From an uncultured Candidatus Saccharibacteria bacterium (GTDB taxonomy: Bacteria > Patescibacteriota > Doudnabacteria > UBA920): a DNA stretch of 64,000 nucleotides. The notes under the pieces were generated by a model. The model did no database searches and had not been told where the DNA came from. It saw only the letters and a list, made by a program, of their open reading frames with translations. Position numbers and translations under genes: made by a program. The stretch spans positions 201,481 to 265,480 of the forward strand of contig CAZHIA010000001.1 of assembly GCA_964532425.1 (NCBI GenBank), written 5' to 3'. Of this stretch, positions 14,205 through 60,362 are shown one piece after another. Numbering within the stretch: the first letter of the stretch is position 1; every line of letters begins with the position of its first letter.

Positions 14205-14232
14205 AAAAAAGCAGCCGCATGCGGCTGCTTTT
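14205..14232. terminator. bidirectional rho-independent terminator
   Basis: aaaaaagcagccgcatgcggctgcttttt, a perfect GC hairpin flanked by A/T runs between convergent genes. Confidence 0.85.
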
Positions 14233-24739: not shown

Positions 24740-24870
24740 TTGCAAATTTCCAATATCCAATTTCCAACCTGCCTGCCGGCAGGCAGGTTTCCAATAAAAT
24801 GTCTAATGCTCGAATTTGGAAATTATTATATTTGAAATTTTGTTAGGAATTAGAAATTGGGAATTTGAAA
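24730..24870. repeat. AT-rich CCAAAT/ATTTGG inverted-repeat element centred on CCTGCCTGCCGGCAGGCAGG (copy B)
   Basis: The same 20-bp GC palindrome lies at 24761-24780, flanked by ttccaatatccaatttccaa / gaaattgggaatttgaaatttt arms. Confidence 0.7.
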
Positions 24871-39564: not shown

Positions 39565-39759
39565 AAGCCTCCTTGTAAAATGACTTACATTTATAGCAGA
39601 TTTTATCTTGTTTTGTCAATAGTAAAATAAAACCGCACATCCATGTTTGCACAAAGGTGGCCTTTGCGCATGGTATGCTTATTTTCCAAGTCCGTCTTTG
39701 TTCAATAAAAAGAGCGGCACTCCGGACCGAAGTCCGGCAATGCCGCCCAGGTGGCGAAC

Positions 39760-42056: not shown

Positions 42057-42605
42057 TTAATGGACGTGTCCCTTCTTTTTCGGGGGAGGCGTTTCCCCGG
42101 TCGTTTCCGACCCGTTGTGCCTGAGGACAGCCGCGGCGTGGGCAATATCGTCATAGTCGACATCGAGCATTCCTTCGTGGTTCGCTGTGTGTAGCGTAAC
42201 ATGCGTCGGTCCGATGGCGGTGACTTTGCCGACTATGGTGGTACCGTCATTGAGCTGAAGCCTGACAATATGCCGGATGAATTTCAGGAACGGTGTAGCC
42301 GACGGATGGATGATCGTGCCAGGCTCTTTGAAGGAGACATTATGGGAGCCGAAATATTTCCGGCAAAATTTTACGAGGCGGATTTCTTCGGTGTCGTGTA
42401 CCGTGACGGTTATGTACCAACCGTTTGGGTGTTCGAAATAGCTGCTGATTGGCCGAAGGAAACTCCGGCCGCTGGAGGAGTCTGTCAGACGGAATGCCTC
42501 GCCGAAGGCTTTCATGAAATCCCATTCAAGCCCGAGCGGGACGATTATTTCCCACACGATGTTGCGCATAGTAACACGTGACTCGGCAGTGGGTGCTGGG
42601 TCCAT
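42057..42605 (-). CDS. hypothetical protein
   Basis: 182-aa ORF. Confidence 0.45.
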   Translation of the reverse strand: MDPAPTAESRVTMRNIVWEIIVPLGLEWDFMKAFGEAFRLTDSSSGRSFLRPISSYFEHPNGWYITVTVHDTEEIRLVKFCRKYFGSHNVSFKEPGTIIHPSATPFLKFIRHIVRLQLNDGTTIVGKVTAIGPTHVTLHTANHEGMLDVDYDDIAHAAAVLRHNGSETTGETPPPKKKGHVH

Positions 42606-42750
42606 CTATAACCTCCTTTACCGCCTCCTGTCGGCAATACTGCCCGATATGAGAGGCACTCATAGTATACCAATTCTCCTCTTAAATAAGAAATATTTTT
42701 TTTGCTGCCCACAATCGAAGTTGCTGCATCCCAATCCTAAAAAAAGTTTA

Positions 42751-42776
42751 CATTTTACTGCATATGCAGTAAAATG
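42751..42776. promoter_or_regulatory. 26-bp perfect palindrome CATTTTACTGCATATGCAGTAAAATG overlapping the start codon of 42774..43511
   Basis: Shares the CTGCATATGCAG core with the 44-bp palindrome family. Confidence 0.8.
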
Positions 42777-43511
42777 TTGAATATATTAACCGTTTGGAGA
42801 GATGGAGGAAATTCAAACGGGAACGCAGCGAGTGTTATGAGACAAAAAGATAAAAAAATCAGCATTAAGTATGTAGTCAAAAAACATTTACCTGAAAAGA
42901 AATCGAATACGCCACCTCTGTTTACGCCGGAGGAAGTGGCGAAACTGAAGACCGCAGGTAGTGTTGTACTTGGTATTGTCGTAGCGGCCGGAGCACTGAC
43001 GATTGCGGCCATGGCTCCAAATGCTCTGCAGCTCATCAAATTTCTGCCAGGGTTGAACAAGCGAAATAAGCGTTATTCTGAGAGCGAAGAAATTGCCAAG
43101 GCGGTGTACTATTTACGGGACAGGGGATATGTGGAATTGTTACCTCGTGGCAATGATTATGAAATACGGGTTACAAAAAAAGGACACAAGAGAATTTTAA
43201 AATTTGACCTTCAGAAGCTGGAAGTCCCGCGACCCGAAAAATGGGATGGCAAGTGGTGGATTATTATTGCGGATGTACCGATTAATGAGCGCGTGCATGC
43301 AGGCTATTTGAGGGACAAGTTCAAAGCCATGTGCTTTTTCCCGCTCCAAAAAACCGTATGGGTCTATCCGTACGATCCGCGCGACCAGGTGGATTTTGTC
43401 TCCTCGTACTTTAGCTTGGAACGGTTTCTCACCATATTGCGGGCAGACAAGCTGGATCCAGAAGATGAAAAAGAACTCACTTCTTTCTTTAAGGAACACA
43501 GTATACTCTAA
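42774..43511 (+). CDS. PaaX-like protein: N-terminal TM segment + winged-HTH + PaaX-C/Cas2-like domain
   Basis: The wHTH region EIAKAVYYLRDRGYVELL... is followed by KWDGKWWIIIADVP...LRDKF....FPLQKTVWVYPYD, which matches the PaaX C-terminal pattern. Confidence 0.5.
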   Translation: MLNILTVWRDGGNSNGNAASVMRQKDKKISIKYVVKKHLPEKKSNTPPLFTPEEVAKLKTAGSVVLGIVVAAGALTIAAMAPNALQLIKFLPGLNKRNKRYSESEEIAKAVYYLRDRGYVELLPRGNDYEIRVTKKGHKRILKFDLQKLEVPRPEKWDGKWWIIIADVPINERVHAGYLRDKFKAMCFFPLQKTVWVYPYDPRDQVDFVSSYFSLERFLTILRADKLDPEDEKELTSFFKEHSIL

Positions 43512-43541
43512 GTATATCTAGAAAGTAATCCATATCCTGTA

Positions 43542-43585
43542 GTCATTCTACAAAAAGCTGCATATGCAGCTTTTTGTAGAATGAC
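43542..43585. repeat. 44-bp perfect palindrome GTCATTCTACAAAAAGCTGCATATGCAGCTTTTTGTAGAATGAC (family copy 1)
   Basis: Seen directly. It doubles as a bidirectional A-run/hairpin/T-run terminator. Confidence 0.9.
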
Positions 43586-43784
43586 TTTCATTAGGTAAAT
43601 TTAATGAGGGCATAATCAATTTCTCAAGCTTGACGCTTATGGTGATATGGTGTTTAAATAGAGAGTCCGCACGGACTTACCTGATCCGAATAAAACCTAA
43701 CTTGCTAACCACATGTTGGGTTCGGAAAGGGACAACTGTTGCGCTAGACACGCAATGGTACTTCAATTTGAAAGAGGATTATAA

Positions 43785-44495
43785 ATGTCTGCTAAGCACA
43801 GACCTGCAGAAGTTTTTCGTCCTGTTGACCGGCTCACAGACCTCTTCACCCGGGTATACCAGGAAATGAAGAAGGGTCAGCGCAGCCCGGAGATGGATAA
43901 GGCACTGCTGGATTCGCTCCAGTGGTATCACGAAAACCGTTTGGGGATTGTCATACGTACCGAACCGAAGAAGGCCGCTGTCACCCCTGAAGAAACTCAG
44001 AGGCTTCTTTCCATTCCGATATTTGATTCGACGATTGATTGGAGGATTCAGCGCTACTGCAAGCCGCTGGGCATTCACTACGTCGGCGAACTTTATCTTA
44101 TTGAATGGAAGTACCCCAGAGACCAGAAGCACTCGCAATCCGTGGCGCGGGCAATGGTGGAAGACTTTCTGATCGGCCTTGGCTTTCCTCCTGCGGCGAC
44201 GCTCGAAGAGCTCGACTGGAAACCGCCGTACGACAACGACGAGTTTCGTCGTCTGCTCGATCAGCCCATCGAAACCATAACAACCCAGCACTTTAGTTAC
44301 CAGAGGATATTTCTCGGGTGGAAATACGACAAGATGAGAGAAGTATTTATCGGAGATGCCTTTGGTAAATCCAAACGGGACAACGACTACTTCCGTTCTT
44401 TCCGGGAACACGGCAAGAAAGACAAAGGGCTGCACGCAGGGATGTGGGCAAGAGGCTGGAAGCGGCCCGTTGCATTGGAGGTGGCCAATGGTTAA
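43785..44495 (+). CDS. hypothetical protein
   Basis: 236-aa ORF, overlapping by 8 nt (ATGgtTAA) with the next gene. Confidence 0.5.
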   Translation: MSAKHRPAEVFRPVDRLTDLFTRVYQEMKKGQRSPEMDKALLDSLQWYHENRLGIVIRTEPKKAAVTPEETQRLLSIPIFDSTIDWRIQRYCKPLGIHYVGELYLIEWKYPRDQKHSQSVARAMVEDFLIGLGFPPAATLEELDWKPPYDNDEFRRLLDQPIETITTQHFSYQRIFLGWKYDKMREVFIGDAFGKSKRDNDYFRSFREHGKKDKGLHAGMWARGWKRPVALEVANG

Positions 44496-44736
44496 CTGCG
44501 GCAAGTGCGAGAAAGCGGCGCGGTGGCGGTTAATAACCAAGACCGAAGGTTTTGGGAATTCGGATGCTGGCGGTGCAGCCCATATCCGTTACGCCTGCGA
44601 TGGCCACAGGGACGAGGTGAAGGGGGAGATGGAAGTTACCATCGCTGACGGCGAACGAGCGTGCGGCAATCCGCTGTATCCGCAGTTCTCCAAACTCGGA
44701 TTCGGCCCCGTTCAAACCGTTCCGTTCCGGCAGTAG
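44488..44736 (+). CDS. small zinc-ribbon protein, hypothetical
   Basis: CGKC...C.GH motif. Translationally coupled to the upstream gene. Confidence 0.4.
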   Translation: MVNCGKCEKAARWRLITKTEGFGNSDAGGAAHIRYACDGHRDEVKGEMEVTIADGERACGNPLYPQFSKLGFGPVQTVPFRQ

Positions 44737-44855
44737 CAAGACATGTATTTACACAACCAGCATACGTGCTGGCACGCAGCGCGCGTCTCGGATTCTATCC
44801 GGACGCGCGCTTTCTAATTGTTCCCACAAAGGTCACCTTCGTTTATTCAAAATAT

Positions 44856-44886
44856 AAAACCACCCTTCGACAAGCTCAGGGTGGTT
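44856..44886. terminator. conserved bidirectional terminator hairpin AAAACCACCCttcgacaagctcaGGGTGGTT (family copy 1)
   Basis: Sits between convergent genes. Near-identical copies lie at 46025 and 56218. Confidence 0.8.
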
Positions 44887-44918
44887 ATGGAGACGAAAAG
44901 CACATGGCGCCGTTTTGC

Positions 44919-45128
44919 CTATTTTGGTTCATCGTGCCCGGGGTCGTCCAATCCAGCGGCGATGTTGACTGCCTCTATGGATCGCTGCATTGCTTCGTTG
45001 TCGACAACCTCCGCAACCTGGTCGTACGTTAGCATGGCTACCATAATTGTGGCTTCCTTCAGTTCCCTGTCAGTCATGAAAAGGTTAGCCCGCAACTTCT
45101 GCTCGAAGAATGCTCTTTTTTCTCTCAT
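44919..45128 (-). CDS. small hypothetical protein
   Basis: 69-aa ORF with a strong GGAGGAAAGT SD. Confidence 0.4.
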   Translation of the reverse strand: MREKRAFFEQKLRANLFMTDRELKEATIMVAMLTYDQVAEVVDNEAMQRSIEAVNIAAGLDDPGHDEPK

Positions 45129-45287
45129 ACTTTCCTCCGGTCGTAAGATAGCTTAGGATAGCATGGCGTACGTACGCTGTCCAGAATGGGCAAACCCGGC
45201 ACCTTTACAAATAGTCCCTGCATTGCTATTCTGAATTTTCCATGATCCGGCCTGCGGGCAGGGGATTGGATGGAGAGGAGGAAGTGA

Positions 45288-45629
45288 GTGATTAAGTCGA
45301 ATGAGCGGGAAAAAGGGGATGTGACGATCGTGGACATTAGCGGGCGAATATCGCTCGGGCAGGGTGCAGACAGTTTGAGGGAAATAACCATTGACCTGGT
45401 TCGCAGAGGTCGGAAGAAGGTTATTCTCAACCTGGCCGAAACTTCTTACATCGACTCCAGTGGTATAGGGGAACTCGTGAGCGGTTTTACCCGTCTGGCC
45501 AATCACGGCGCTGAGCTTAAGCTGCTGGTTATTGGAAAGCGGCTTAAGGACTTGCTCAAAATGATAGGACTTTATACAGTCTTCGACATGTTCGAGGACG
45601 AAAACGAAGCTGTCCGAAGTTTCCAGTAG
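45288..45629 (+). CDS. STAS-domain anti-sigma-factor antagonist (SpoIIAA-like)
   Basis: YIDSSGIGEL phosphorylatable-Ser motif. 113 aa, with a GTG start and a GGAGAGGAGG SD. Confidence 0.8.
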   Translation: MIKSNEREKGDVTIVDISGRISLGQGADSLREITIDLVRRGRKKVILNLAETSYIDSSGIGELVSGFTRLANHGAELKLLVIGKRLKDLLKMIGLYTVFDMFEDENEAVRSFQ

Positions 45630-45641
45630 TAGGGAGGGAGA

Positions 45642-45992
45642 ATGGTAAAATTCAACATCACGGAAATTCAGGATGTCACCGTCCTTGATGCGTCGGGCAG
45701 GATCACACTCGGCGAAGGCTCGGTAATGCTACGGGACACATTCCGCGCGCTGGTTGCCGAAGGGAAACGCAAATTCGTTCTGTGTGTCGGTGATGTCAGC
45801 TACATCGACTCTTCCGGCATCGGCGAAATGGTCTCCGGACAGCATGTGGTAACCAAGAGCGGCGGAGAAATCAAACTCGCCGCGCTCACCAAACGCGTGA
45901 AGGACCTGCTTCAGATCACCAAGCTTTATACCGATTTCAGCGTCTACGACACTTCCGAAGACGCCGTCGAGGCGTTTCTGAAGGCGAAATAA
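45642..45992 (+). CDS. STAS-domain anti-sigma-factor antagonist, tandem paralogue
   Basis: YIDSSGIGEM motif. About 40% identical to the upstream gene. Confidence 0.8.
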   Translation: MVKFNITEIQDVTVLDASGRITLGEGSVMLRDTFRALVAEGKRKFVLCVGDVSYIDSSGIGEMVSGQHVVTKSGGEIKLAALTKRVKDLLQITKLYTDFSVYDTSEDAVEAFLKAK

Positions 45993-46024
45993 TAAGCACA
46001 AACAAATGGGGCACGTCCCTACAC

Positions 46025-46058
46025 AAAACCACCCTAGCTAGAACAAAGGGTGGTTTTT
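46025..46058. terminator. conserved terminator hairpin AAAACCACCCtagctagaacaaaGGGTGGTTTTT (family copy 2)
   Basis: Seen directly after the STAS pair. Confidence 0.8.
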
Positions 46059-46176
46059 ATATATCTTTGATGGACAAAATCGTTTACGAAGATTACGAAG
46101 GTGACCTTTGTAAATTCAAATTAAAAAGGCGGCACTGCGTGAGTGCCGCCGTTCTGTTTTGACGGTCTATAAATAT

Positions 46177-46362
46177 TTAGCCTCCTCCTGGCTCTAGTTT
46201 TTCTCCACAGTAGGGACAACACCATACGCGGTTGAGTTGGGGCTCTTGCAGGGTGAAGTAAAATACACCCCAGAAAACAGCGCCGAGGTCTTGGAACTGC
46301 TTTACATGCATTCCGTATGGCCTGCCCACCCCTTTGGGGCACTTATGCTCCTTCAAAGACAA
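46177..46362 (-). CDS. small Cys-rich protein (CPYCGEK zinc ribbon), hypothetical
   Basis: The ORF starts with TTG. An own terminator lies at 46125-46165. The start is uncertain, and an internal ATG is possible. Confidence 0.3.
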   Translation of the reverse strand: MSLKEHKCPKGVGRPYGMHVKQFQDLGAVFWGVFYFTLQEPQLNRVWCCPYCGEKLEPGGG

Positions 46363-46474
46363 CCTCCTTCCCTTCGTTCTTGGCTTATATCTCCCCGTTT
46401 GATAATTCCCAAAAGACGCTTTATTTTACCAAAAACTTTCGCAAAAGCAAAGGCATATTTAATGTATCTAATGT

Positions 46475-46518
46475 ATTATTCTACAAAAAGCTGCATATGC
46501 AGTTTTTTGTAGAATAAT
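46475..46518. repeat. 44-bp palindrome ATTATTCTACAAAAAGCTGCATATGCAGTTTTTTGTAGAATAAT (family copy 2, 1 mismatch)
   Basis: Seen directly. Confidence 0.9.
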
Positions 46519-46638
46519 CATGATTGAGTATGGGAATATACGAAGATGACCATTGTATGGGGACCTTTGTAACACAAAACCACCGCATGAGCGGCGGTTT
46601 AAAGTTTTTTTGTGGGGATACCTGGCCTACTTCGCTTT

Positions 46639-46953
46639 TCAGGCTACGCTGATCTCTGTGAAAAAACCTTTAAGCATTTCTTTCAGAACTGTTTTTCCTT
46701 TGGTTGTTTTAAAATACCTTTCCCTTTTTAGTGCATCAAATTTGTTCGGAAAAGCTTCATAAAAAATTAATTCAAGCGGTCTGCGATTTCGGGTGGAGAT
46801 ATTTTTTCCAGAATTATGATCTTTAACTCTTGTTTTTAAATCTTCAGAGTACCCAATATAAAACAGTCTATCTTTCAGGCTGCGGAGAATATAAACATAG
46901 TAAAATTTTACTGGCATATGTTTGTTTATACTATTTTGGTTATAGTATATCAC
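46639..46953 (-). CDS. GIY-YIG nuclease-family protein (small, URI-domain only)
   Basis: FYYVYILRS..DRLFYIGYSEDLKTRVKDHNSGK....RP..LIFYE motifs. The start is probably the internal Met (MPVKFYYVY). Confidence 0.75.
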   Translation of the reverse strand: MIYYNQNSINKHMPVKFYYVYILRSLKDRLFYIGYSEDLKTRVKDHNSGKNISTRNRRPLELIFYEAFPNKFDALKRERYFKTTKGKTVLKEMLKGFFTEISVA

Positions 46954-46963
46954 TAATTAAAAC

Positions 46964-47100
46964 AGCCCTGAACCACTCGGCCTGAAGGCCTTGGGTACAG
47001 GGCATGTATCAGTCGCTCATGGCTGCACTAGCCCTGAACCAGTCATCCGCCCAAAGCGGATTCCGGTACAGGGCATATACCACTCGCACTTTCATGTATA
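46964..47100. repeat. two tandem ~66-71-nt hairpin-containing repeats (AGCCCTGAACC...GGTACAGGGCAT...ATGGCTGC)
   Basis: Seen directly, immediately 3' of the tmRNA gene on its strand. Confidence 0.7.
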
Positions 47101-47137
47101 TGGCTGCGCCATATACCCGAGCAAAGCGAGTGGTATA

Positions 47138-47526
47138 TGGTGGAGATGCCGGGAGTTAAACCCGGGTCCAAAACGTATCGATCTTCCCATTATTCACAAG
47201 ATTAGTCGGTTATTGTACCTCTATGATATCCAACCGACAACGAATCATAAAGGCTGATATACAAGTCTTGTTCCCGGCAGGTATATCGGCCACCGGGCTA
47301 GCAACCTCTAATGAACCCACTAACCCCGAGCGGAGGTGCGCGCGGGAGTGAGGTAACAACCTAAAGTTAGGCCATTACAGGTGCGAGGTCGGCGTTTTGA
47401 AACGCGGCCACTACCTTTTGCCAGGAATTGGCATTTGTTGGTTGATCGCAGGATTTTCGAGGTCAGCAATCGTGCTCGTCTTGCATATGAAAAGATGTCA
47501 AAGTTCTGTCAAAAACCGTCATCCCC
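47138..47526 (-). ncRNA. ssrA: tmRNA (SsrA), one-piece
   Basis: On the minus strand the 5' end is GGGGAUGACGG and the 3' end is GGACCCGGGUUUAACUCCCGGCAUCUCCACCA. The 7-bp acceptor stem has a G3-U pair (alanine identity). A T-arm with a 7-nt loop is followed by ACCA. An internal tag-like frame follows a UAGUG context, analogous to E. coli UAGUC-GCA: GCC GCG UUU CAA AAC GCC GAC CUC GCA CCU GUA AUG GCC UAA (AAFQNADLAPVMA*). Confidence 0.7.
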
Positions 47527-47823
47527 ATAAAAAACTTCCAGAGGATAGTCCTGTACCCGACTCAAAGGAGTGGTATCAGGGCATCCCCGTGGATAATACT
47601 GTAGCATAAATTTTCCGTCAGGTCAATAAATTGGGTAAAAGACGACTTTTATATGCGCTAATTTATGGCTTATATAAGCCATAAATATATATTAATATTG
47701 ACAATATGACTAAAATGTTATATAATATACGGATACTTTCCAAGTATCAAAAAGGCTTTGCTGTGTGCCTTAACCAAACACTTCACGGCTCTTTATTGAG
47801 CTTTCAAAGGAGGTTCATTCCCA

Positions 47824-48413
47824 TGAATGAACAGATTTTTGACACCATCACGGTCGAATTTGATATCCTGTATCATGCATCGATCGAGCTGAGTGAGAAT
47901 GGAACATTTTCCATCACTCAGAAGTGCCAAGACGACCACGCCACGGCCAAAATCGCTAACAAGGACATCGAAGCTCTTGAGGCAGCTCTTCGGGAGGGTT
48001 TTAGAAACCCTAAAAACCGGCATGCGATTCACAGCATCTCGATCACGTTCAACAAGATGCGGCTCCCTCGGATGCAGATGTATGTCCCGGACAGTCAGGA
48101 CGAAAACGGTTTTCGGCAAGGGCTCGGGGTGCATGGCTTCGATGGGTTTACATTCATTTCTGATTGTGACCCGAAGTCAAAGCTGGTCACGATTATGATC
48201 CATCCGCACCAGATCACCGACGCCGACAAGACCTACGAGCAAGTTTTTAAGGCCTTCGTTGGCTTTGCGAGAAAGACTGTGCAGTTTGCGCGGAGTGGCG
48301 ACGCGATTACTAACCTTATTCGCGCGCTGCGCAAGCAGCCGACGGATGAAGGCTACATCTCCCGGGCCATTCACACGGCCTACGGCGAGATGAGCAAGCA
48401 GGCTCGCTACTAG
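47824..48413 (+). CDS. hypothetical protein
   Basis: Start at the internal ATG with an AAGGAGG SD (MNEQIFDTITVEF...). Confidence 0.5.
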
Positions 48414-48645: not shown

Positions 48646-48701
48646 TCGGCCAAACCAAAAAGAGGGAAGATGAATCGAGCGTTGTCCTGTGACGACGCGC
48701 A

Positions 48702-48744
48702 CTGCCGCCAAGACATCTTCGGATGTTGAGGCGGCTTTGTTTTG
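48702..48744. terminator. repeated terminator hairpin CTGCCGCCAAGACATCTTCGGATGTTGAGGCGGCTTTGTTTT (copy 1)
   Basis: An identical 40-nt copy lies at 49645..49688. Confidence 0.85.
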
Positions 48745-49603: not shown

Positions 49604-49644
49604 AACGTTTGCACAATCTGAGTGCAGAACGGTCATCTTCTATA

Positions 49645-49688
49645 CTGCCGCCAAGACATCTTCGGATGTTGAGGCGGCTTTGTTTTTG
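49645..49688. terminator. repeated terminator hairpin (copy 2, identical to 48702..48744)
   Basis: Seen directly. Confidence 0.85.
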
Positions 49689-49769: not shown

Positions 49770-50657
49770 ATGCAACACGAACTTAGGACCTATTCTCCAT
49801 TTGAAAGCGAAAAGGGCAATAGCGGGAGATATAACCCCTTATACGAGTCTGTCCAAATTTCATCGTATGAAGGGTATATTGCAAACCCCGACCGCCAAGT
49901 GGCTTGTTTTTCCCTGGAAGCGGAAATGCAGGCAAAAGGGTTTGAAACCACGGCCATCGGCAATCAAACCGGAATTTTCAGGGTATTTAAAAATAAGAGA
50001 CTTTTTGGGTTGGCCCAAATGACTTTTGACAATACGGCCAAGTCCCATGGTGTGTACTTGCGTTTTATCGATCCGGACGGAACGTTCCATAAGCAGTCGG
50101 TAATCTTAAACCCCAAAGAGTATGACAAGGACGACTTTGAAAACATCCCGCTCGCAGATGCCATAGAGGGCATGACCCAATATTCCGAAGCTCGGCAAAA
50201 AGCATTCGAAGCTTACAAGGCGTCTTTAATAGAAGCGGTCAATAAGGGAAAGCGAAGCGAAAAATATGAAAGCTGGTTCAAAGTTGAACAATATATAACA
50301 AATGAGAACCTAATTTTTTACCGGCTTATAGATTCCATAGGAGGGGAGCTGAGAGATTTTCCTCACTGCACCAATCGGGTCAACCATGACCGTTTGAATA
50401 CGTTAATCGCACATTGGATGGACTTGGACATAGACGATACTCAGTTTGCGCGATCGCTCTTGAAGGACCCAAAGAGCGGGGACTTCCTGTACCCGGAAGA
50501 CTACGAAAAAGTCATACTCAATGACCTTGCGAAAGACGGCGATGACGAAACCGTGAGAGACTTACGCGCCTTCCTGGGCCATGCTTTCCAATACAGACAC
50601 ATTGGACGAATAATCCATACAATTGAGCATAGCCCATACTTTCAAAAATCAACATAG
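49770..50657 (+). CDS. hypothetical protein
   Basis: 295-aa ORF with a terminator hairpin at 50668-50700. Confidence 0.5.
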   Translation: MQHELRTYSPFESEKGNSGRYNPLYESVQISSYEGYIANPDRQVACFSLEAEMQAKGFETTAIGNQTGIFRVFKNKRLFGLAQMTFDNTAKSHGVYLRFIDPDGTFHKQSVILNPKEYDKDDFENIPLADAIEGMTQYSEARQKAFEAYKASLIEAVNKGKRSEKYESWFKVEQYITNENLIFYRLIDSIGGELRDFPHCTNRVNHDRLNTLIAHWMDLDIDDTQFARSLLKDPKSGDFLYPEDYEKVILNDLAKDGDDETVRDLRAFLGHAFQYRHIGRIIHTIEHSPYFQKST

Positions 50658-50812
50658 AAACCATTCGAAAACCGCTAGCCCTCCGCCAGCGGTTATATGT
50701 AAAAGAGGAACTGACACCTTGTTTGTTTATTAGAATATAGTACCGGAGGCTTCTGCTGGTGAATACATAGTCCTTTGTAGAATATCAAAATTTACAAAGA
50801 TTATCTTTGTGT

Positions 50813-50851
50813 ATGGGGGACTGAAGGAGTAAGTTTGAGATTTCTGCTATT
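50813..50851. repeat. direct repeat ATGGGGGACTGAAGGAGTAAGTTTGAGATTTCTGCTATT (left copy)
   Basis: Its partner lies at 57705..57747, with a 17-nt identical core GGACTGAAGGAGTAAG plus extended similarity. The pair brackets the low-GC island. Confidence 0.7.
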
Positions 50852-51074
50852 TTTGAAACCGCGCTCTAGGGCGACTTTGTTTTGCAAAGGTCCCCACGCA
50901 ATGGTCACCTTGGTATACCTTGGTATATGATTTGGTCGTTCGGAAAAGAAATAATAAACTATTTCAATAATTTCAATAGCAATAAATAAGTCTTCATGCG
51001 CCTTATTTATTTATACTTGTTAAATAAGCCAAAAAATGGCATACTATCTGTGTAAATTACTATAGCCAACAATA

Positions 51075-53498
51075 ATGTTGAAGATCTATCTAAAACAAGA
51101 CTGGGATTATCCATCCAATTACGATCCCAATACTAACCCCGGACACTTCGCTGGAAGAGATAAAGAGAAGAAAGAATTAGTCGATGAATTCCTGCGTAAA
51201 GATAACGGTAGTATTTTAATTAGCGGCGCAAGAGGTGTCGGTAAAACCTCTTTAGTTTACTACGCATTAAAAGAGTCTCAAGTAAGAAATACAAATATTA
51301 TTCCTATTGTCCTTAATGCATCTCAATTAGAGCTCCATACTTACCAGGTAACTACTAAGGATAAGGATTTGCCTTATGTTATTATAGAAAACCTGATCAG
51401 AAGACTATACGGGTATTTTCAGACAGATGGTACTAAAGTAGAAATTAGTAACAAAAATTATCAAAAGTTAGGCAACCTTTACAAGAAAGCCACGGCTAAA
51501 GAATATAGTCACTCTGAGCGATATGGAAACAAGGATGAATCTGTTGACGAAAATACCGTTGAAGAAACAAATACAGCTGAATCTACTTTCGATAAAAAAT
51601 CTCTTATTAACCTATTTTACTTAATAGGCATTTATACTCTATTTGCTGATCAATATTTTAATATAGAATATTGGAACAAAATAATTGGCATAACCTTTTT
51701 ATTTATACCCACATTTAGTTATAAATATCTATTTAAATCTGTTAAAAAGAACTTAAGTAAACTTAGCAAATCTAATTCCGCAGAAGATTTATACAAGGAA
51801 GATAATTCTTTGGGCAATCTTGAATATGAACTGAATTCTCTACTAAAAGAGTTATGCAAAGAAGGCAAAAAAGTCATTTTTGTCATTGACGAACTGGATA
51901 AGTTGGAAGATTCTCAAGAGTCAGAATCTAAAAAAGTATTTGAAATTATTAAAACTTTTAAGAATCTTTTTACTTTATCTTCTGCTTTGTTTGTTTTTAT
52001 TACTAGTGATATTTCATATAATACTGTAATGGCAACGAGAGCAGAACGTAGAATGTATTACACTTTATTTACTAATCGAATCTTTTTAAATCGGCCAGCG
52101 TATACTGACTTGGTTAAATATCTTAAAGGTATTGTAGATTATGTTGACAATAGTTTAACCAAAGATCGACCAGAGTTTACAGCCTTAGAGCAAAAGGATA
52201 GAGAGAAATTAAATGGTCTCTTCAATCATTTATGTTATGAAGCAAAAGGAGACTATTTTGAGCTATCTTTTGTTATTAGAGACTACATTAATGATTACAG
52301 TACAGAAGGCGAAAAACAACCAATAATCAATCTTGAGGACGATAAATACTTCGGCTTTGATGATAGGCTGAAAGCTAAACTACAAATAGTAGTAGCTCAA
52401 ATATACGATATAAATAAAAATCCAGTCCAATCACGTTGGCATGAGAATGATGGAATACTATCACAGCTTTATGGTTTCTTTGAGCGTAATCTCGCCAAAG
52501 GAACTTTTAGAATTAACCAGAAAACTGAAAATCAGTTAATAAAAGATGATTTAATCACTTACCTAAAAAGATTAGAAATTATTAAACTTCTAAAAAAAGA
52601 ACCGGAACAAGAAAATTCGGAACCAGACGTTGTCCATGTTTATCAATGGACAAATAACATTCCTGGAGAAAAAAGCATTCCAGATATTCCCGAAGCTCCA
52701 AATACTTTATTTAATGAAGAGCAAGCTTTTATTAATATCGCTAAGAAATACGTTCAATTAATTAACGATATTGATGACTTGGAAACCGATGCTAAAAATG
52801 TTGCTGAAGGAAAGTTTGAAAGAGGATCCTATGATTTTGAAACTGGAATAATTCAAACCCGTGATGCCAGCTCCATAACTGGTATTAATGCCTTTAACTT
52901 TTTTGAAAAATACGATGACTATATTTCCGGATTACTTGATTCTAAGCCCGAACATATTAATAAAGCAGATTTAAAGAATTTCACTAAGGAATTTGAAGAA
53001 GAGTTAAACAAGATTAAAGAGGCTACACTAAATATATTTAAAAATCTACTAATTAAAGTATTTAACTCTACAGGTTTTCAACATGGATTTGCCACTTTAC
53101 CCGAAGACGGCTCATTATTCACAAGCCTGAATGACTTAAGGACCGAAGTTGTTAATAAAGGAGTTCCACATTTTGTAGTATATAACTTAGACCCTGAGAA
53201 ATCTAAGCAGCTTTTAGTTACTCAAAATATAGACCTGAATATTTTGAGTAATGAAACTATAAAGTTACTGGATAAAAATTTATCGTATAGAATACTCAAC
53301 ATTCAAACTAATTCAGCACTAGACTACTCAAATAAAAATAAGTACAAAGATCAAAAGACTGAAACTACTAAAGGCAAAAGTAGAGTAACCGAGTTTACAA
53401 AAACGTCCGATTCATTTATTAACCTTGTAGCTAATAATGATTTATCAGTTTATCCTGAAATGCTAAAATCTGTTCATGATTGGTTTAATAGTAAGTAA
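51075..53498 (+). CDS. KAP-family P-loop NTPase (STAND-like, PifA-like) with membrane hairpin inserted between Walker A and B, plus large unknown C-terminal region
   Basis: FAGRDKEKKEL..x..ILISGARGVGKTSL Walker A, then two hydrophobic helices (LINLFYLIGIYTLFADQYF, IIGITFLFIPTFSYKYLF), then Walker B VIFVIDELDKLED. About 30% GC, against about 55% for the window. Confidence 0.65.
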   Translation: MLKIYLKQDWDYPSNYDPNTNPGHFAGRDKEKKELVDEFLRKDNGSILISGARGVGKTSLVYYALKESQVRNTNIIPIVLNASQLELHTYQVTTKDKDLPYVIIENLIRRLYGYFQTDGTKVEISNKNYQKLGNLYKKATAKEYSHSERYGNKDESVDENTVEETNTAESTFDKKSLINLFYLIGIYTLFADQYFNIEYWNKIIGITFLFIPTFSYKYLFKSVKKNLSKLSKSNSAEDLYKEDNSLGNLEYELNSLLKELCKEGKKVIFVIDELDKLEDSQESESKKVFEIIKTFKNLFTLSSALFVFITSDISYNTVMATRAERRMYYTLFTNRIFLNRPAYTDLVKYLKGIVDYVDNSLTKDRPEFTALEQKDREKLNGLFNHLCYEAKGDYFELSFVIRDYINDYSTEGEKQPIINLEDDKYFGFDDRLKAKLQIVVAQIYDINKNPVQSRWHENDGILSQLYGFFERNLAKGTFRINQKTENQLIKDDLITYLKRLEIIKLLKKEPEQENSEPDVVHVYQWTNNIPGEKSIPDIPEAPNTLFNEEQAFINIAKKYVQLINDIDDLETDAKNVAEGKFERGSYDFETGIIQTRDASSITGINAFNFFEKYDDYISGLLDSKPEHINKADLKNFTKEFEEELNKIKEATLNIFKNLLIKVFNSTGFQHGFATLPEDGSLFTSLNDLRTEVVNKGVPHFVVYNLDPEKSKQLLVTQNIDLNILSNETIKLLDKNLSYRILNIQTNSALDYSNKNKYKDQKTETTKGKSRVTEFTKTSDSFINLVANNDLSVYPEMLKSVHDWFNSK

Positions 53499-53585
53499 AG
53501 TTTACCGAATGCGTGGTACTAGAGGCTTTGAATTTGGCAAACTATTTTGCTCTAAATAAGGCATTTTTGGGCAAATAATATCAAT

Positions 53586-54245
53586 ATGACCACTAAGGAA
53601 CAAGTGCTTACTTTAATTTTCCAAGCTGTTCCGTCTTTCCAAAATTCAAAGATTTGGAAAGAGCATTTAGAATTTTGGGGAGATACAGAAGAACGAGGCT
53701 TGTACAATGATACGGCTGAATTGGCTAGATATATGGCGGAACAATATAAGGCTGGGGAAACTAAGGAACTTCCAGCATTATTCACATTGATTGAAAAGTT
53801 GTACCTCGAGGGAGATCATTACGTCAAAGAATTGGCAACAATTGGATTCTTAGAAGATCTTCAAGGCCAATTTGGTAATGCTGAAATAAAATCTGAGGTA
53901 TTAGAAAAGTATCTTGGACCTGAATCACAAAAATGGTGGAACTATTTAAATAACATTTGGTCAGGCAAGCTAAAGGAAAAATATCAATGGTTCCATGAGC
54001 GTGTTACTGAAATCGTCAATGCGCTTGACCCCTGGTATTTAATTTCAGGAGGTGCCCCCAAAGATGAATATAGCCAGGAAGTTACCCGAATTATAGCTGG
54101 TCTGAAGGATTGCGAAACGGAAGAGGATGCAAGGCAGCTTGTACTTAAACATTTAGGTGGCGAAAACAGTAGCAAAGAAGCTTGCGCCAAGATTGCCCAG
54201 CAGGTTTTCAAAATTTGGGAACAAATATTATTTTCCAAGGAATAA
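53586..54245 (+). CDS. hypothetical protein (island gene 2)
   Basis: 219-aa ORF, low GC. Confidence 0.5.
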   Translation: MTTKEQVLTLIFQAVPSFQNSKIWKEHLEFWGDTEERGLYNDTAELARYMAEQYKAGETKELPALFTLIEKLYLEGDHYVKELATIGFLEDLQGQFGNAEIKSEVLEKYLGPESQKWWNYLNNIWSGKLKEKYQWFHERVTEIVNALDPWYLISGGAPKDEYSQEVTRIIAGLKDCETEEDARQLVLKHLGGENSSKEACAKIAQQVFKIWEQILFSKE

Positions 54246-54249
54246 TTGT

Positions 54250-55176
54250 ATGTGGCCATTTAAGAAAGAAAATAAAAAATTCATGCTGCTTCAATCGGAA
54301 AAAGAAGGCAGGCCGGTTTGGATAACTGTCGATGGCAGCTTGAAAAATTTAGCAAAAAAAGATGAAACTCCCTGGTGTCTTTGGCTTGGAATACAAATTG
54401 AATCCCAAAAAGGATTACCGGACGAAAAGGAAGCAAAAGAGTTGAATGATTTTGAGGATGAAATTCAGAATAAATTATCAAAAATTGGTAAAATTCATTT
54501 TGTTCTTAGAACTACCTGGAACGGCCATCGGGACTTGTATTTTTACTTAAGTAAGGCAAAAGAATCCCATGAACTCCTATTGGGTATTACAAATTTACCA
54601 AAACCGCCGAAACAATTTCAATATGAAATTTCAAAAGACCCAAATTGGCAATCTGTTAATTGGGTATTTGAGCAACTAGATAAACAGCCTAAATCAGACA
54701 ATCCGAAAGATGAGAATAGTGTGACTTTGTTTGCTTTCAACAGCAATGAGAAACTGAAATCTCTTGCATATAGGGCTTTGAATGATGCAATAGAATTTAT
54801 GAAGAAAGATGGAAAATTTAACCCTTTCTGTTTAACAGAAAAAGAACTTTGGCGTCCAAAGTCCATTGGCGTTAATGAAAATATTCAAGAAATAGAAAAA
54901 CACATTGGTGTCTTACAAGACGAAACCATTGCTGTTTACTGCCATAGTGGTACAATCGGCATTCCGCCTTTTGGTAAAGAGGTAAACTGGCCGACACAGT
55001 TTGCAATATTTGTAAAAGCTTATGATAAAAACGAAGATAAAGGGTACTTGATTTTTCAGATGTATCGTCCAAGGACTGAAGCGGAAGGATTTGCTATATT
55101 AGGAAATACCACAATAGCACCAACTCCTAATATTTTTATTCATAGCTGTTTTCACGAAGGTGGCCTTTGCAAGTAA
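54250..55176 (+). CDS. hypothetical protein (island gene 3)
   Basis: Start at the ATG of MWPFKKENKK... 308 aa, low GC. Confidence 0.5.
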   Translation: MWPFKKENKKFMLLQSEKEGRPVWITVDGSLKNLAKKDETPWCLWLGIQIESQKGLPDEKEAKELNDFEDEIQNKLSKIGKIHFVLRTTWNGHRDLYFYLSKAKESHELLLGITNLPKPPKQFQYEISKDPNWQSVNWVFEQLDKQPKSDNPKDENSVTLFAFNSNEKLKSLAYRALNDAIEFMKKDGKFNPFCLTEKELWRPKSIGVNENIQEIEKHIGVLQDETIAVYCHSGTIGIPPFGKEVNWPTQFAIFVKAYDKNEDKGYLIFQMYRPRTEAEGFAILGNTTIAPTPNIFIHSCFHEGGLCK

Positions 55177-55747
55177 TTTGGAAAAACGAATGAAAAGAAG
55201 AGGGCATCTGTGGTTGCGGATTTCAGAAGAATCTAATGCCTTAGATAATCTCCAAAAAGCATATTCATTTATCATTCAAACCCATTCTGATGAGAATGCT
55301 TGGAAATGGGTTATATTAAGTATCCACTCCGCTTTATTCAGTTTTGCTATATGCGCTTTAAAAGGTACAAGTACTATAAATGTAACTATTCAGACAAAAA
55401 AAGGTGAGAGATTGATTAGTTTTCCTGAAGCGATCGAAATGGTACAGGACGAGAATCGGATGAGAATGACCGTGATGAGTAAGCATCTCCAGTTAACAGA
55501 TGACGAAAAGCGCTCGATAGATAGGCTGCATACAGAATTTCGAAATGAATTAGAACATTACATACCTAAATTATGGGTAATTGAAGTTCCCATGCTGCCG
55601 AAGATGGTTACTCACTGCTTGGATGTAATTAGATTTTTAGCTATTGAGTCAGGTAATTACGATCATTTTAGTGGCTACCAAAAACGAAAAATCAAATCAC
55701 TGATTTTCCAAAGTAAGAAATTTCTTACAAAGATGACCTTCGTTTAA
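55160..55747 (+). CDS. hypothetical protein (island gene 4)
   Basis: 195-aa ORF overlapping the previous stop. The true start may be the internal Met (MKRRGHLWL). Confidence 0.4.
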   Translation: MAFASNLEKRMKRRGHLWLRISEESNALDNLQKAYSFIIQTHSDENAWKWVILSIHSALFSFAICALKGTSTINVTIQTKKGERLISFPEAIEMVQDENRMRMTVMSKHLQLTDDEKRSIDRLHTEFRNELEHYIPKLWVIEVPMLPKMVTHCLDVIRFLAIESGNYDHFSGYQKRKIKSLIFQSKKFLTKMTFV

Positions 55748-55826
55748 ATACCTGTTTCTACAGGTATTTTCATTTAGCATGGTATTATTATAGGAGGAGT
55801 GCTACCTATAATTTGGTAATAGATAC

Positions 55827-56150
55827 ATGCTCAGGTTTTTAAAAACTCTCCATACTGTTATCTGGGTAATAATGGCCTCTGCCAATTTTTTGGCTTTTTA
55901 TTTTGCCTACATCGGCAGATTTGATGCCTGGTTTTGGGTACCCTGCTTACTCATAGTGGGTGAGAGCATAATAGTAGCCATGAACGGATGGCACTGCCCC
56001 ATAACCCCGATTGCGGCGAAGTACACGAAAGACCGAAATCCAAACTTTGATATTTATTTGCCTCAATGGTTAGCCGAATACAATGTCCGAATCTTTGGCA
56101 TACTCATAGTCTTGGAAATCATTATTGTTCTGGCCAAAAGATATAGGTAA
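55827..56150 (+). CDS. small membrane protein (DUF2784-like), island gene 5
   Basis: Two to three TM helices and a GWHCPITP motif. Confidence 0.5.
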   Translation: MLRFLKTLHTVIWVIMASANFLAFYFAYIGRFDAWFWVPCLLIVGESIIVAMNGWHCPITPIAAKYTKDRNPNFDIYLPQWLAEYNVRIFGILIVLEIIIVLAKRYR

Positions 56151-56217: not shown

Positions 56218-56252
56218 GAAAACCACCCTTCGACTAGTTCAGGGTGGTTTTG
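56218..56252. terminator. conserved terminator hairpin AAAACCACCCttcgactagttcaGGGTGGTTTT (family copy 3)
   Basis: Differs from copy 1 at only 3 loop positions. Confidence 0.8.
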
Positions 56253-56255
56253 TGT

Positions 56256-56864
56256 TTACAAGGCACCGGGTACCTTTTCTGTTCCTTGCTTGGCAACTGC
56301 GAGGAAGACGTATTTGCGGGCCTCCCACTTCTTGCGGTCAGAAATCTCGCGGCTGTCTAAATACTTAAGACATGGACCTCCTAAACTCATTAATTCGGGC
56401 TGCCAGCGGGTGGACATGTAATACATCATCGGCGCTATCACGATTGGGGACTGAGATTTCTTTTTACGAACAAGCAGCTTATTACCTTGGTCTTCGTAGC
56501 CGCCACCCAAAGCCCAAACGAAGACTCCTGGATATTCTTTCAAGATCTCGGGGCAAATGGCGGAAAAAGCCAACCAGTGAATGATGGAAGCCGGGGCCAT
56601 ACCAAAGGCGTCCAGCTCCCTGAGGACCGTTGTGGTAATCATTTCGCGTTCGTTCAAAAATCCTCGAATCTCTACGGTTTCGGTTACATGTCTGCGGTAA
56701 CTATCGTACTTGTCTCTGACCGTTTGGGAAATACAAGTCATCCGTTCCTGGGCATGCGGAGTTTTCCGGTGGGCCGCCCGAAACATTTCTTCAAATGTTT
56801 TGGAGCGGTCAATGTTCACCGTAACCGGCAGATGTATGCCAAAAACTTCCTGTGCCTCAATCAT
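56256..56864 (-). CDS. hypothetical protein
   Basis: 202-aa ORF with normal GC. Confidence 0.5.
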   Translation of the reverse strand: MIEAQEVFGIHLPVTVNIDRSKTFEEMFRAAHRKTPHAQERMTCISQTVRDKYDSYRRHVTETVEIRGFLNEREMITTTVLRELDAFGMAPASIIHWLAFSAICPEILKEYPGVFVWALGGGYEDQGNKLLVRKKKSQSPIVIAPMMYYMSTRWQPELMSLGGPCLKYLDSREISDRKKWEARKYVFLAVAKQGTEKVPGAL

Positions 56865-56977: not shown

Positions 56978-57019
56978 ATTATTCTAAAAAAGCTGCATAT
57001 GCAGCTTTTTGTAGAATGA
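56978..57019. repeat. 44-bp palindrome family copy 3 (CATTATTCTAAAAAAGCTGCATATGCAGCTTTTTGTAGAATGAT)
   Basis: Seen directly. A TTGACA-N17-TAGACT promoter-like sequence lies about 45 bp downstream. Confidence 0.9.
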
Positions 57020-57121
57020 TAAGATTTTCAATGATTACCTTTGCGTGTCTGTCTTGACAAATTATAGTAGTCATAGTAGACTTTGTAGTCTTATAAAGAT
57101 ATGGAAGTAGGGGGGATTAAA

Positions 57122-57571
57122 GTGGAGGATATTGAAAGAAAGATTGTCCGTCCGGCAACTCGCCGTGACTGGCCGCGATTCGCATATGGTTTGGACAAGG
57201 CTCGAAAACTATTTGTGGCAGACGGAACGGAAGTGTATTTCCGTCATCTGCAAGTGGTGGAAGTCCACCGTCCGGTAACCCGTACTTTCACTAAATGGTG
57301 GGGTCTCAGAAAGTACCAAGAATCGTTCGATGAAATCGAAGAGGCGATATACTTCCAACCATCCGGTAGTGAGACGGCGTCGGACTACTTCTATTTCCGC
57401 TTCTATGAAGAAAAAGTGCTCTTGAAGGACTTGCCGGACGAAACTCTGTTCATTGCGACGGATAAGTTTGTGCGGAGGGGTGGTCGCATTGTAAGGAAGA
57501 AGAAGTCTTGGCTGAAGAAACTTATTTCAGCCCTCACACCCGCACCTGAGCCGGAGATTGTTCCTGCCTAG
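57122..57571 (+). CDS. hypothetical protein
   Basis: GTG start after an AGGGGGG SD. The longer frame starts at 57101. Confidence 0.45.
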   Translation: MEDIERKIVRPATRRDWPRFAYGLDKARKLFVADGTEVYFRHLQVVEVHRPVTRTFTKWWGLRKYQESFDEIEEAIYFQPSGSETASDYFYFRFYEEKVLLKDLPDETLFIATDKFVRRGGRIVRKKKSWLKKLISALTPAPEPEIVPA

Positions 57572-57704: not shown

Positions 57705-57747
57705 ATGGATGGTGGACTGAAGGAGTAAGGTGGAAATCTCTGTCATT
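57705..57747. repeat. direct repeat ATGGATGGTGGACTGAAGGAGTAAGGTGGAAATCTCTGTCATT (right copy)
   Basis: Partner of 50813..50851. Confidence 0.7.
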
Positions 57748-58572: not shown

Positions 58573-58965
58573 TTAGGCCACCTTGAAGTTCCACTGGCCG
58601 TTGTTGTGGACGTGGAGGTAGGAGGGGACGCCGGACTTGCTCGGGACTTGGAATACGATTACGGCGTCGGTCCCTGGGTAGTACTCCACGTTCGAGATGT
58701 AGTGGAAGTCTCCACCGCAGATGAGGTGGTGAGACTCGGCTTGGCGCCTGGACCGCGGACAGTCGTGGGTTACGGTATCGATCCGCACGTGGACTTCACC
58801 GCCATTGTAGTTTACGGCGACGATCGTCCGTGTTCCGCTTGCGGTATTCGGAATATCGAACGACGCAAATTCCAGTCCGCCGGGAAGACTCTCGAGCACA
58901 GTGGCTCGCCTGAGCACTTCTCGCGCTCTGGCAACATCGAAAGAAACGGTTGTGTTTGTGGACAC
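58573..58965 (-). CDS. hypothetical protein
   Basis: 130-aa ORF. Confidence 0.45.
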   Translation of the reverse strand: MSTNTTVSFDVARAREVLRRATVLESLPGGLEFASFDIPNTASGTRTIVAVNYNGGEVHVRIDTVTHDCPRSRRQAESHHLICGGDFHYISNVEYYPGTDAVIVFQVPSKSGVPSYLHVHNNGQWNFKVA

Positions 58966-60261: not shown

Positions 60262-60305
60262 ATTATTCTACAAAAAACTGCATATGCAGTTTTTTGTAGA
60301 ATAAT
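60262..60305. repeat. 44-bp perfect palindrome TATTATTCTACAAAAAACTGCATATGCAGTTTTTTGTAGAATAATGA (family copy 4)
   Basis: Seen directly. Confidence 0.9.
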
Positions 60306-60362
60306 GAACTGATAAATAATAACCGCTCCGAGAAGCTCGGAGCGGTTTTGTGTTTGGCGTGA

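Follow-up and report, generated by a model that had tools for sequence, protein, structure and literature searches.

A putative minimal PaaX-like autorepressor and its flanking perfect palindromes in a Doudnabacteria genome

The gene on the plus strand at 42774-43511 of a 64-kb stretch of Doudnabacteria DNA (the window, here meaning the whole stretch analyzed, with positions counted from its first letter) raises the question of whether a small protein resembling the repressor PaaX controls its own expression through the long palindromes that lie on both sides of it. PaaX is the phenylacetyl-CoA-responsive repressor of Escherichia coli and Pseudomonas, and its PaaX_C domain is said to bind phenylacetyl-CoA. 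The bacteria of the candidate phyla radiation (CPR), or Patescibacteria, account for a large share of bacterial diversity, and to our knowledge almost nothing is known about their gene regulation. An earlier note, made from the DNA letters, had read the gene product as a PaaX-like regulator with an N-terminal transmembrane helix and had placed its start codon inside a palindrome. Our analysis gives a modest preference to a minimal PaaX-like autorepressor with cognate palindromic operators on its flanks, whose binding and repression would follow from the sequence evidence and from the analogy with PaaX described below.

The 245-aa open reading frame (ORF) at 42774-43511 was confirmed in the window, and its most likely coding sequence is a 224-aa form at 42837-43511 (+) that is identical to the protein P0001. 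Pfam returned a match to PF20803 PaaX_M, worded there as 'PaaX protein central Cas2-like domain' (E 1.7e-13, 50.9 bits with a cut-off of 24, ORF residues 155-235, profile positions 2-82 of 83), along with a weak winged-helix match. The AlphaFold2 model was composed of a winged helix and a ferredoxin fold, with a mean predicted local distance difference test (pLDDT) score of 85.8. The predicted winged-helix DNA-binding domain occupies 42954-43217 (+), P0001 residues 40-127, and was modelled as a helix (40-51), a strand (53-55), a helix (56-67), a basic loop (68-81), the recognition helix (82-95), the wing (99-112), and a last helix (114-127). The Cas2-like ferredoxin-fold domain, placed at 43236-43478 (+) by Pfam and AlphaFold2, was built as beta-alpha-beta-beta-alpha-beta over residues 140-203 with pLDDT of 92-97. 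When a profile of 117 homologues was used as the query, the best solved relative was E. coli PaaX (PDB 8a39, E 2.9e-5), which was also the best by fold, and the alignment ran from the PaaX recognition helix through the wing to the WDGKW start of the Cas2-like domain. The PaaX similarity anticipated in the earlier note was thus recovered by profile comparison, through PaaX_M and 8a39, but the remaining profiles of interest gave nothing: the Pfam search of the protein showed no match at E up to 1 to PF07848 (the PaaX N-terminal winged helix), PF08223 (PaaX_C), or PF09827 (Cas2). The protein stops about 10 residues past the Cas2-like domain, and a precomputed PF09827 match was present in only 5 of the 117 homologues. 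Searches of NCBIfam, PADLOC, and PHROGs with the protein gave no match, and no transposase domain, HUH/Y1 included, was found by Pfam in the palindrome-flanked gene. The protein is PaaX-like at the domain level and neither a PaaX orthologue nor a Cas2; it is a minimal PaaX-type protein, with a predicted winged helix and a Cas2-like domain that would correspond to the first two of the three PaaX domains. Strand 1 ends in an invariant Asp (D146 of P0001, D167 of the ORF, codon 43272-43274), which stands at what we take to be the position of the Cas2 catalytic Asp, and E. coli PaaX carries a Ser there in the profile alignment.

The palindromes around this gene have in common a 12-bp core, CTGCATATGCAG. 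Five exact copies of the core were present in the window against 0.01 expected, a number reached in 0 of 100 shuffles, and all five fell within 42.7-60.3 kb. The candidate operator of the gene is the 28-bp perfect zero-spacer palindrome ACATTTTACTGCATATGCAGTAAAATGT at 42750-42777; the earlier note had measured it as 26 bp, which is too short, and had correctly related it to the 44-bp family, as the CTGCATATGCAG core is common to it and to four longer palindromes. The first of these, a 46-bp perfect zero-spacer palindrome at 43541-43586, begins 29 nt past the stop codon and carries TTCTAC/GTAGAA outer arms around the core. A 44-bp copy with one mismatch was found at 46475-46518, between the STAS genes and the GIY-YIG gene plus transfer-messenger RNA (tmRNA) gene; an imperfect copy at 56980-57016, perfect over 56987-57010 and with a one-base indel in the left arm, lies in the divergent intergenic region between the ORFs 56256-56864 (-) and 57101-57571 (+); and a 44-bp perfect palindrome with the CTGCATATGCAG core occupies 60262-60305. 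Three of the four long copies sit 29-121 nt past the 3' end of a gene. When the 200-bp contexts of the copies were aligned, homology ended at the palindrome edges.

Several candidate explanations for the extra copies were tried and rejected. A larger mobile element around the palindromes was discarded on the grounds of the confined homology just described, and neither target duplications nor terminal repeats were seen at the window copies. A second family member near the extra palindromes was ruled out by hmmsearch of all the window ORFs, which found this gene only, and the weak tblastn signals at 44635-44715 and 58723-58893 were discarded as gene remnants, with a probability below 1% in the profile comparison. 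A role of the 44-bp palindromes as promoters was rejected as well, because their outward TAGAAT boxes have no acceptable -35 partner and none was reported in the promoter scan. In a sequence collection that does not contain the window's genome, the short motif AAAANCTGCATATGCAGNTTTT gave single, unrelated matches in 39 contigs from diverse bacteria, and the 32-nt palindrome gave no match in the metagenome scan.

The position of the upstream palindrome relative to the predicted promoter is what would link it to the expression of the gene. The best sigma-70-like site on the plus strand, at 42747-42775, is composed of TTTACA (42747-42752), a 17-nt spacer, and TAAAAT (42770-42775); with 10 of 12 matches it was the top-scoring site in 42400-47200, and the palindrome core lies in its spacer. 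A weaker mirror-image site on the minus strand, TCAACA-17-TAAAAT (9 of 12 matches), faces the divergent ORF 42057-42605. In the related locus L005, a TTTACA-N17-TAAAAT site was likewise observed to enclose the palindrome core in its spacer. In many distant loci of the family, a TATAAT-like box was found 0-10 nt after the upstream palindrome, with an ATG about 6-7 nt later, an arrangement that suggests leaderless transcripts at those loci.

This layout also bears on the start codon. As the earlier note had stated, the ATG at 42774-42776 does lie within the perfect palindrome. We place it in the right arm (TAAAATG), outside the CTGCATATGCAG core; its use as the start is probably wrong. This ATG overlaps the -10 hexamer of the TTTACA-N17-TAAAAT site and is upstream of the presumed transcript start, and the start was therefore put at 42837. 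In agreement, the public gene call P0001 (100% identical, 224 aa) begins at ATG 42837, and on an independent Logan contig the gene was called with this start as well. The ten nearest homologues have N-termini that aligned within a few residues of the Met at 42837, and the 21 additional N-terminal residues of the 245-aa ORF matched nothing in the homologue alignment. Two observations speak against this placement: a good Shine-Dalgarno sequence is not present before ATG 42837, and the ATG called for P0003 (locus L046, 51% identity) is in the same palindrome register as 42774 (ATGCATATGCATtaaaATG in L046 versus CTGCATATGCAGtaaaATG in the window). Nonetheless, judged from the sequence, ATG 42837 is the most likely true start, and initiation at the upstream ATG 42774 is improbable. 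An upstream ORF of 12 codons (MEEIQTGTQRVL) was also noticed at 42802-42840, preceded by GGAGAG and with its TGA overlapping ATG 42837 (ATGA); either translational coupling to the main gene or a chance occurrence could account for it.

The association between gene and palindromes was then considered across the family. A word-indexed search gave 117 relatives, and those with a named source were almost all from Patescibacteria/CPR (Doudnabacteria, Zambryskibacteria), some of them annotated as PaaX or Cas2. An exhaustive profile search with an E threshold of 1e-3 returned 6,745 representatives, and 1,103 were obtained when the threshold was 1e-30; family size is accordingly given as at least 6,745 clusters at 50% identity, mostly from CPR bacteria, and the metagenome scan contributed at least 530 family loci. 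The members have 180-225 aa and a common architecture. In the 117 sequences, W136, D137, D146, W175, and P178 were invariant, and R155, R159, and the WDGKW, RR, and QxSVWVYPY motifs were nearly so. No publication describing this CPR family of winged helix plus PaaX_M was found in the literature searched.

Within the close clade P0002-P0005 (50-55% identity; loci L045, L046, L002, and L005), a long palindrome was found directly after the stop codon in all four cases, and a related shorter one directly before the start, again in four of four. The L005 gene has TTTCATTTTACCTTTTTACGCATATGCGTAAAAAGGTAAAATGAAA downstream and a palindrome containing ACGCATATGCGT upstream, and in L046 the stop codon of P0003 is followed by ACATTTTAATGCATATACATTAAAATGT, near-identical to the upstream palindrome of the window. 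For distant relatives, zero-spacer palindromes were counted in 80 metagenomic loci, within 120 nt after the stop and within 150 nt before the start, and family genes were compared with the other ORFs of the same loci. Downstream palindromes with arms of at least 8 were found for 29 of 79 family genes and for 26 of 374 other ORFs, and with arms of at least 15 the counts were 13/79 and 6/374 (Fisher p ~6e-7). The upstream side behaved similarly, with 16 of 73 family genes against 9 of 268 other ORFs at arms of at least 8, and 11/73 against 1/268 at arms of at least 15. The central 8-mers of the upstream and downstream palindromes were identical in the six of six loci that had both (permutation p = 0.006), and the same pairing of cores was seen for L098 and L104 in a fuller listing; between loci, the cores differed (GCATATGC, GCTATAGC as in L124, GCCATGGC, and ACGGCCGT). 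Moreover, with arms of at least 12, the center was self-complementary in 14 of 17 family hairpins versus 4 of 18 hairpins downstream of control ORFs remote from the family gene, where loops of 2-8 nt prevailed. Since a plain RNA hairpin needs no self-complementary loop, the symmetry would be read in the DNA, and this result suggests symmetric recognition at the DNA level rather than a plain RNA hairpin.

Two further features of these palindromes were observed. An outer-arm motif, ATTCTAC...GTAGAAT or CTACAAAAAA...TTTTTTGTAG, recurs at palindromes with different cores in distant family loci (L124 9632-9669, L098 6678-6717, and L002 upstream of 10001), and part of the palindrome arm may thus be a conserved recognition element. 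In addition, independent short-read assemblies break exactly at palindromes, at the end of L001 (just past the gene), the end of L046, and the start of L104; it is probable that CPR metagenome assemblies miss or truncate some of the long perfect palindromes of this family.

The neighborhood of the gene offered no other partner. When three ORFs per side were clustered in more than 80 loci, no conserved neighbors were detected across the family; the adjacent genes were scattered housekeeping genes (YqgF/RuvX-like in 6 loci, methionine aminopeptidase, adenylate kinase, and others), and the family paralogues were not clustered. It follows that the gene and its palindromes form a self-contained unit. 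Real synteny was restricted to the close Doudnabacteria-like clade, at about 50% identity, in the order 409-aa gene, this gene, and glycerate kinase. In L002, L003, L004, L005, L045, and L046, the gene ends a run that includes prepilin-type (N_methyl) proteins and a 402-409-aa protein, and a glycerate kinase (DUF4147/MOFRL) comes after it; the window copy is no longer in this synteny. No paa-related Pfam domain was present in the 29 ORFs at 37.8-63.7 kb or in ten large ORFs at 0.9-28 kb. Similarly, the scanned neighbors contained no cas1 or other cas domain, and the window showed no regularly spaced direct repeats of the CRISPR kind.

On these grounds, the following mechanism is proposed. The protein would dimerize via its Cas2-like domain, by analogy with PaaX, and the dimer, or a higher oligomer, would bind the perfect palindromes with the CTGCATATGCAG core. 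The site at 42750-42777 fills the -35/-10 spacer of the gene's own predicted promoter, so that its occupancy would block RNA polymerase and result in negative autoregulation, and it could also shut the mirror-image promoter facing ORF 42057-42605. The 46-bp copy 29 nt past the stop codon would provide another binding site and probably form the 3' hairpin that ends the transcript. The three other copies, which follow within 17 kb in an ORFan-rich stretch near the tmRNA gene, would be bound as well. Without the effector domain of PaaX, the activity of the protein would be constitutive or subject to another kind of control. The autoregulation suggested by the earlier note gains comparative support from the core in the spacer of the gene's best promoter-like site, the family-wide enrichment at both gene ends, and the matching cores, and it would extend to a very large CPR family; the membrane helix and the start codon in the palindrome are the weaker parts of that note.

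Several results weigh against this proposal. The three extra window copies are not clearly positioned on promoters; the copy at 56980-57016 lies 38 nt from a promoter-like TTGACA-17-TAGACT at 57054-57082. A flanking palindrome was detected in only about 38% of the distant loci at the threshold used, leaving about 60% without one. The outer arms differ between the copies of one locus, yet each copy is symmetric with itself, and simple sequence-specific binding leaves such differing self-symmetric arms unexplained. Perfect symmetry over 44-48 bp is also more than a dimeric operator requires, and the invariance of the Cas2-type Asp D146 hints at more than dimerization. In the predicted DNA-binding domain, helix 2 is separated from the recognition helix by a basic loop of 14 residues, which is unusual in a helix-turn-helix, and the winged-helix part of the typical member P0024 was modelled at a pLDDT of only 60-66. 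The autorepressor has to be judged with these points in mind against the alternatives that follow.

The strongest of these concerns the protein rather than the palindromes. The hydrophobic segment SVVLGIVVAAGALTIAAMAP (42990-43049, +), delimited from the sequence and the alignment of the 117 homologues, corresponds to ORF residues 73-92, or residues 42-61 of the 224-aa form, and ends in the APNAL motif. It could be a true membrane span or a re-entrant anchor, in which case the palindrome-bearing DNA would be tethered to the membrane or the protein regulated from it. Its hydrophobicity is strong, with a Kyte-Doolittle 19-residue mean of 2.31 here and of at least 1.6 in 113 of the 117 homologues, and charged residues are nearly missing from columns 50-61, where each column has them in no more than about 1% of the 117 sequences (about 4% in column 49). 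A face of small residues is kept at A49, G52, S55, A57, A60, and A63, and the segment is followed by a basic linker of variable length that resembles a juxtamembrane region. The low AlphaFold2 confidence for this part of the typical member P0024 points the same way. On the other hand, the conservation within the segment is precise: G52 is kept in 105 of 117 sequences, position 55 is S/T, A57 is kept, and A60-P61-N62-A63-L64 are found in at least 111 of 117, and the part before the conserved Gly is amphipathic, with polar columns 41, 42, and 46. In two independent models, AlphaFold2 broke the segment at this Gly and built from it helix 1, strand 1, and helix 2 of the winged helix, with a confidence of about 80 over the region in the first model and of only 60-66 in the second. 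Without the segment, the DNA-binding domain would be short of two of its three helices. Furthermore, in 174 family members both flanks of the segment were basic, with a mean of 4.4 K+R (net +2.4) on the N-terminal side and of 5.4 (net +4.25) on the C-terminal side, so that neither single-span topology fits the positive-inside rule. Hence, of the transmembrane helix proposed in the earlier note, the hydrophobic segment is real and conserved, but its role as a membrane span is doubtful. Of the two readings, burial as helices 1 and 2 of the winged helix is the likelier one according to the models, and we regard membrane anchoring as possible but clearly the weaker.

The palindromes might alternatively be structural RNA or DNA elements, such as bidirectional terminators, mRNA-stabilizing hairpins, or repetitive extragenic palindromic (REP)-like repeats, unrelated to the protein and next to its gene by coincidence. 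All copies fold indeed into very stable RNA hairpins (z -4.1 to -7.9), the 43541 copy with -41.8 kcal/mol and a z of -6.9. In the terminator scan, this copy passed with a poor T-run (tail TTTCATTAGG) and is the sole hairpin after the gene; the minus-strand reading of the 42750 palindrome passed too, and the copies at 46475, 56980, and 60262 were not flagged. The location of three of the four long copies shortly past gene 3' ends also fits with such a role, as does the sporadic presence of AAAANCTGCATATGCAGNTTTT in unrelated genomes, and other perfect palindromes, e.g., AAAAAGCAGCCGCATGCGGCTGCTTTTT at 14206, resemble bidirectional terminators. Against this, the long palindromes have no proper T-run, and canonical terminators are found close to two of them: a separate hairpin at 46128-46150, about 325 nt upstream of the 46475 copy, and another at 60321-60347 (12-bp stem, 3-nt loop, T-run), 16 nt from the 60262 copy, which is thus not needed as the terminator of ORF 60363-60944. 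The enrichment is specific to the family gene when compared with genes of the same contigs, and it is seen at both ends; the copies upstream of the gene sit within promoter-like spacers, outside what would be transcribed; the cores match within a locus and differ between loci; and the self-complementary centers set the family apart from ordinary hairpins. An incidental co-location of structural elements is, therefore, unlikely.

We give a similarly low standing to the idea that the protein acts enzymatically or structurally on the palindromes, as a winged-helix-guided Cas2-like nuclease or a binder of hairpins or cruciforms that would cut, resolve, or maintain them, the palindrome-gene-palindrome arrangement being possibly a selfish or once-mobile cassette. 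The invariant Cas2-type Asp, where E. coli PaaX has Ser, and the near-invariant WDGKW, RR, and QxSVWVYPY motifs would be in line with catalysis. Within a locus the arms vary from copy to copy, yet each palindrome stays perfectly self-symmetric over as many as 24 bp per arm, which suggests that a hairpin or cruciform is being selected for or generated. The gene stands alone among housekeeping genes with no conserved neighbors, palindromes of this family have spread in the window to three additional sites, and the assemblies break at palindromes. Nevertheless, recent mobility is made less likely by the synteny kept in the clade at about 50% identity, no homology was found between the flanks of the window copies, and target duplications, terminal repeats, and gene remnants were none of them seen there. 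No PADLOC or PHROGs match pointed to such an activity, and the Cas2-like domain of PaaX has been described as a dimerization motif (PMC9493321). A bolder version, in which a DNA-processing or architecture protein specific for palindromes nicks, resolves, or maintains the extruded hairpin or cruciform, perhaps held at the membrane via the helix-Gly-helix, and the unit is a new self-contained genetic module, would explain the perfect self-symmetry to 24-bp arms despite arms that differ within a locus, and we consider it a shade less probable still.

Other elements of the window were recorded along with the gene. The genome belongs to the CPR, as the named homologues of its ClpC-like ATPase were all from Doudna-, Falkow-, Pace-, or Wolfebacteria; a transfer from CPR to a non-CPR host, suspected from the PAS-GGDEF-EAL protein, the major facilitator superfamily (MFS) transporter, the cupredoxin, and the 52% G+C, was rejected with these homologues. 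A tmRNA gene at 47138-47526 (-) (Rfam, 124 bits) encodes an unusual tag, ANSWQKVVAAFQNADLAPVMA. Just past its 3' end there is a small GIY-YIG nuclease gene at 46639-46953 (-), followed by the 44-bp palindrome; the 3' ends of tmRNA genes are classic integration sites of islands. A 26-bp perfect palindrome, ATTTATGGCTTATATAAGCCATAAAT, at 47661-47686, between the tmRNA 5' end and ORF 47706-48413, has a core unlike that of the main family. From 38.7 to 64 kb, most ORFs gave no Pfam or PHROG match. The block at 50000-56000 has a low G+C content (33-37% versus about 52%) and contains a DUF695 protein and an 807-aa AAA/STAND-like ATPase with a weak PADLOC mad8 match (E 0.0015); its appearance is that of an island acquired recently, perhaps with a role in defense.

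A number of repeated elements were found too. A second perfect zero-spacer palindrome, CCTGCCTGCCGGCAGGCAGG (core ACCTGCCGGCAGGT), occurs at 3665-3684 and 24766-24789 of the window and in unrelated CPR metagenome contigs (L077 1682-1701 and L053 7975-7998), which suggests another conserved binding site or element common to several genomes. Hairpins of the form AAAACCACCCT...AGGGTGGTTTT at 44856-44889, 46025-46058, 56219-56252, and, weakly, 60317-60350 look like reused terminator modules. The terminator-like hairpin ACTGCCGCCAAGACATCTTCGGATGTTGAGGCGGCTTTGTTTT is present in two identical 43-nt copies, 943 bp apart, at 48701-48743 and 49644-49686. The intergenic motif TGTTTnCACAAAGGTGGCCTTTGC was observed at 39644-39667, 44819-44845, and 55147-55170, with weaker copies at 50893 and 55722, and a 42-nt block has two copies with 81% identity in the ORFan region, at 50810-50851 and 57706-57747; these motifs and the block may be shared promoters or leaders of paralogous modules.

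Returning to the autorepressor, if each member of the family does bind its own flanking palindrome, the family would offer many natural protein-operator pairs with diverged specificity. Such pairs would be useful for working out the recognition code of the minimal PaaX-type fold, for predicting regulons in uncultured organisms, and for correcting database annotations. The combination of an invariant Asp with long perfect palindromes makes a DNA-directed role of the Cas2 fold outside CRISPR directly testable.

When compared with known systems, the protein shares with Cas2 and VapD the beta-alpha-beta-beta-alpha-beta fold and the invariant Asp that ends strand 1, followed by a basic motif. Unlike Cas2, it has no PF09827 match, it is fused to a winged helix, no cas1, cas gene, or CRISPR array accompanies it in the window, and its family has no conserved cas neighbors. 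AspA of pNOB8, TubR, and the MarR/PadR proteins are small autoregulatory winged-helix proteins that bind palindromes near their own genes. Here, in contrast, neither a partition ATPase or GTPase partner nor a plasmid context is present, the Cas2-like domain is additional, and the palindromes are longer (28-48 bp) and are found past the stop codon as well. The arrangement also recalls REP elements and their REP-associated tyrosine transposases (RAYT), in that copies of a short palindrome family lie on both sides of a gene and are dispersed through the intergenic regions nearby as well; the palindromes here, however, are perfect and zero-spacer rather than imperfect hairpins, and the gene is syntenic among its relatives. 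As compared with repeats of the REP type or miniature inverted-repeat transposable elements (MITE), there are five copies in 64 kb with non-homologous flanks, and the flanked gene has no transposase domain.

The closest counterpart is PaaX itself (PDB 8a39 and 3l09), with the order of winged helix and then Cas2-like PF20803 that is predicted here. PaaX recognizes the long dyad TGATTC-N27-GAATCA, and its own Px promoter is repressed because the bound protein sterically hinders RNA polymerase; the Cas2-like domain of PaaX is its dimerization motif (PMC9493321). This dyad and its place in the promoter find a parallel in the TTCTAC-N24-GTAGAA arms and in the putative operator within a promoter-like site described above. 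The differences are considerable, as the protein described here is about 90 residues shorter (224 aa versus 305-316), has neither PaaX_C nor paa genes around it, shows 12% identity in structural alignments and no PF07848 match, and has Asp in place of the PaaX Ser. It has, in addition, a strongly hydrophobic helix 1-helix 2, the invariant APNAL, and a long basic loop leading up to the recognition helix, and its candidate sites are perfect through the center and lie on both sides of the gene. From its sequence and by this analogy, it would best be placed as an autoregulated winged-helix repressor of the PaaX type, new in its cognate palindromes, its retained Asp, its APNAL motif, and its missing effector domain.

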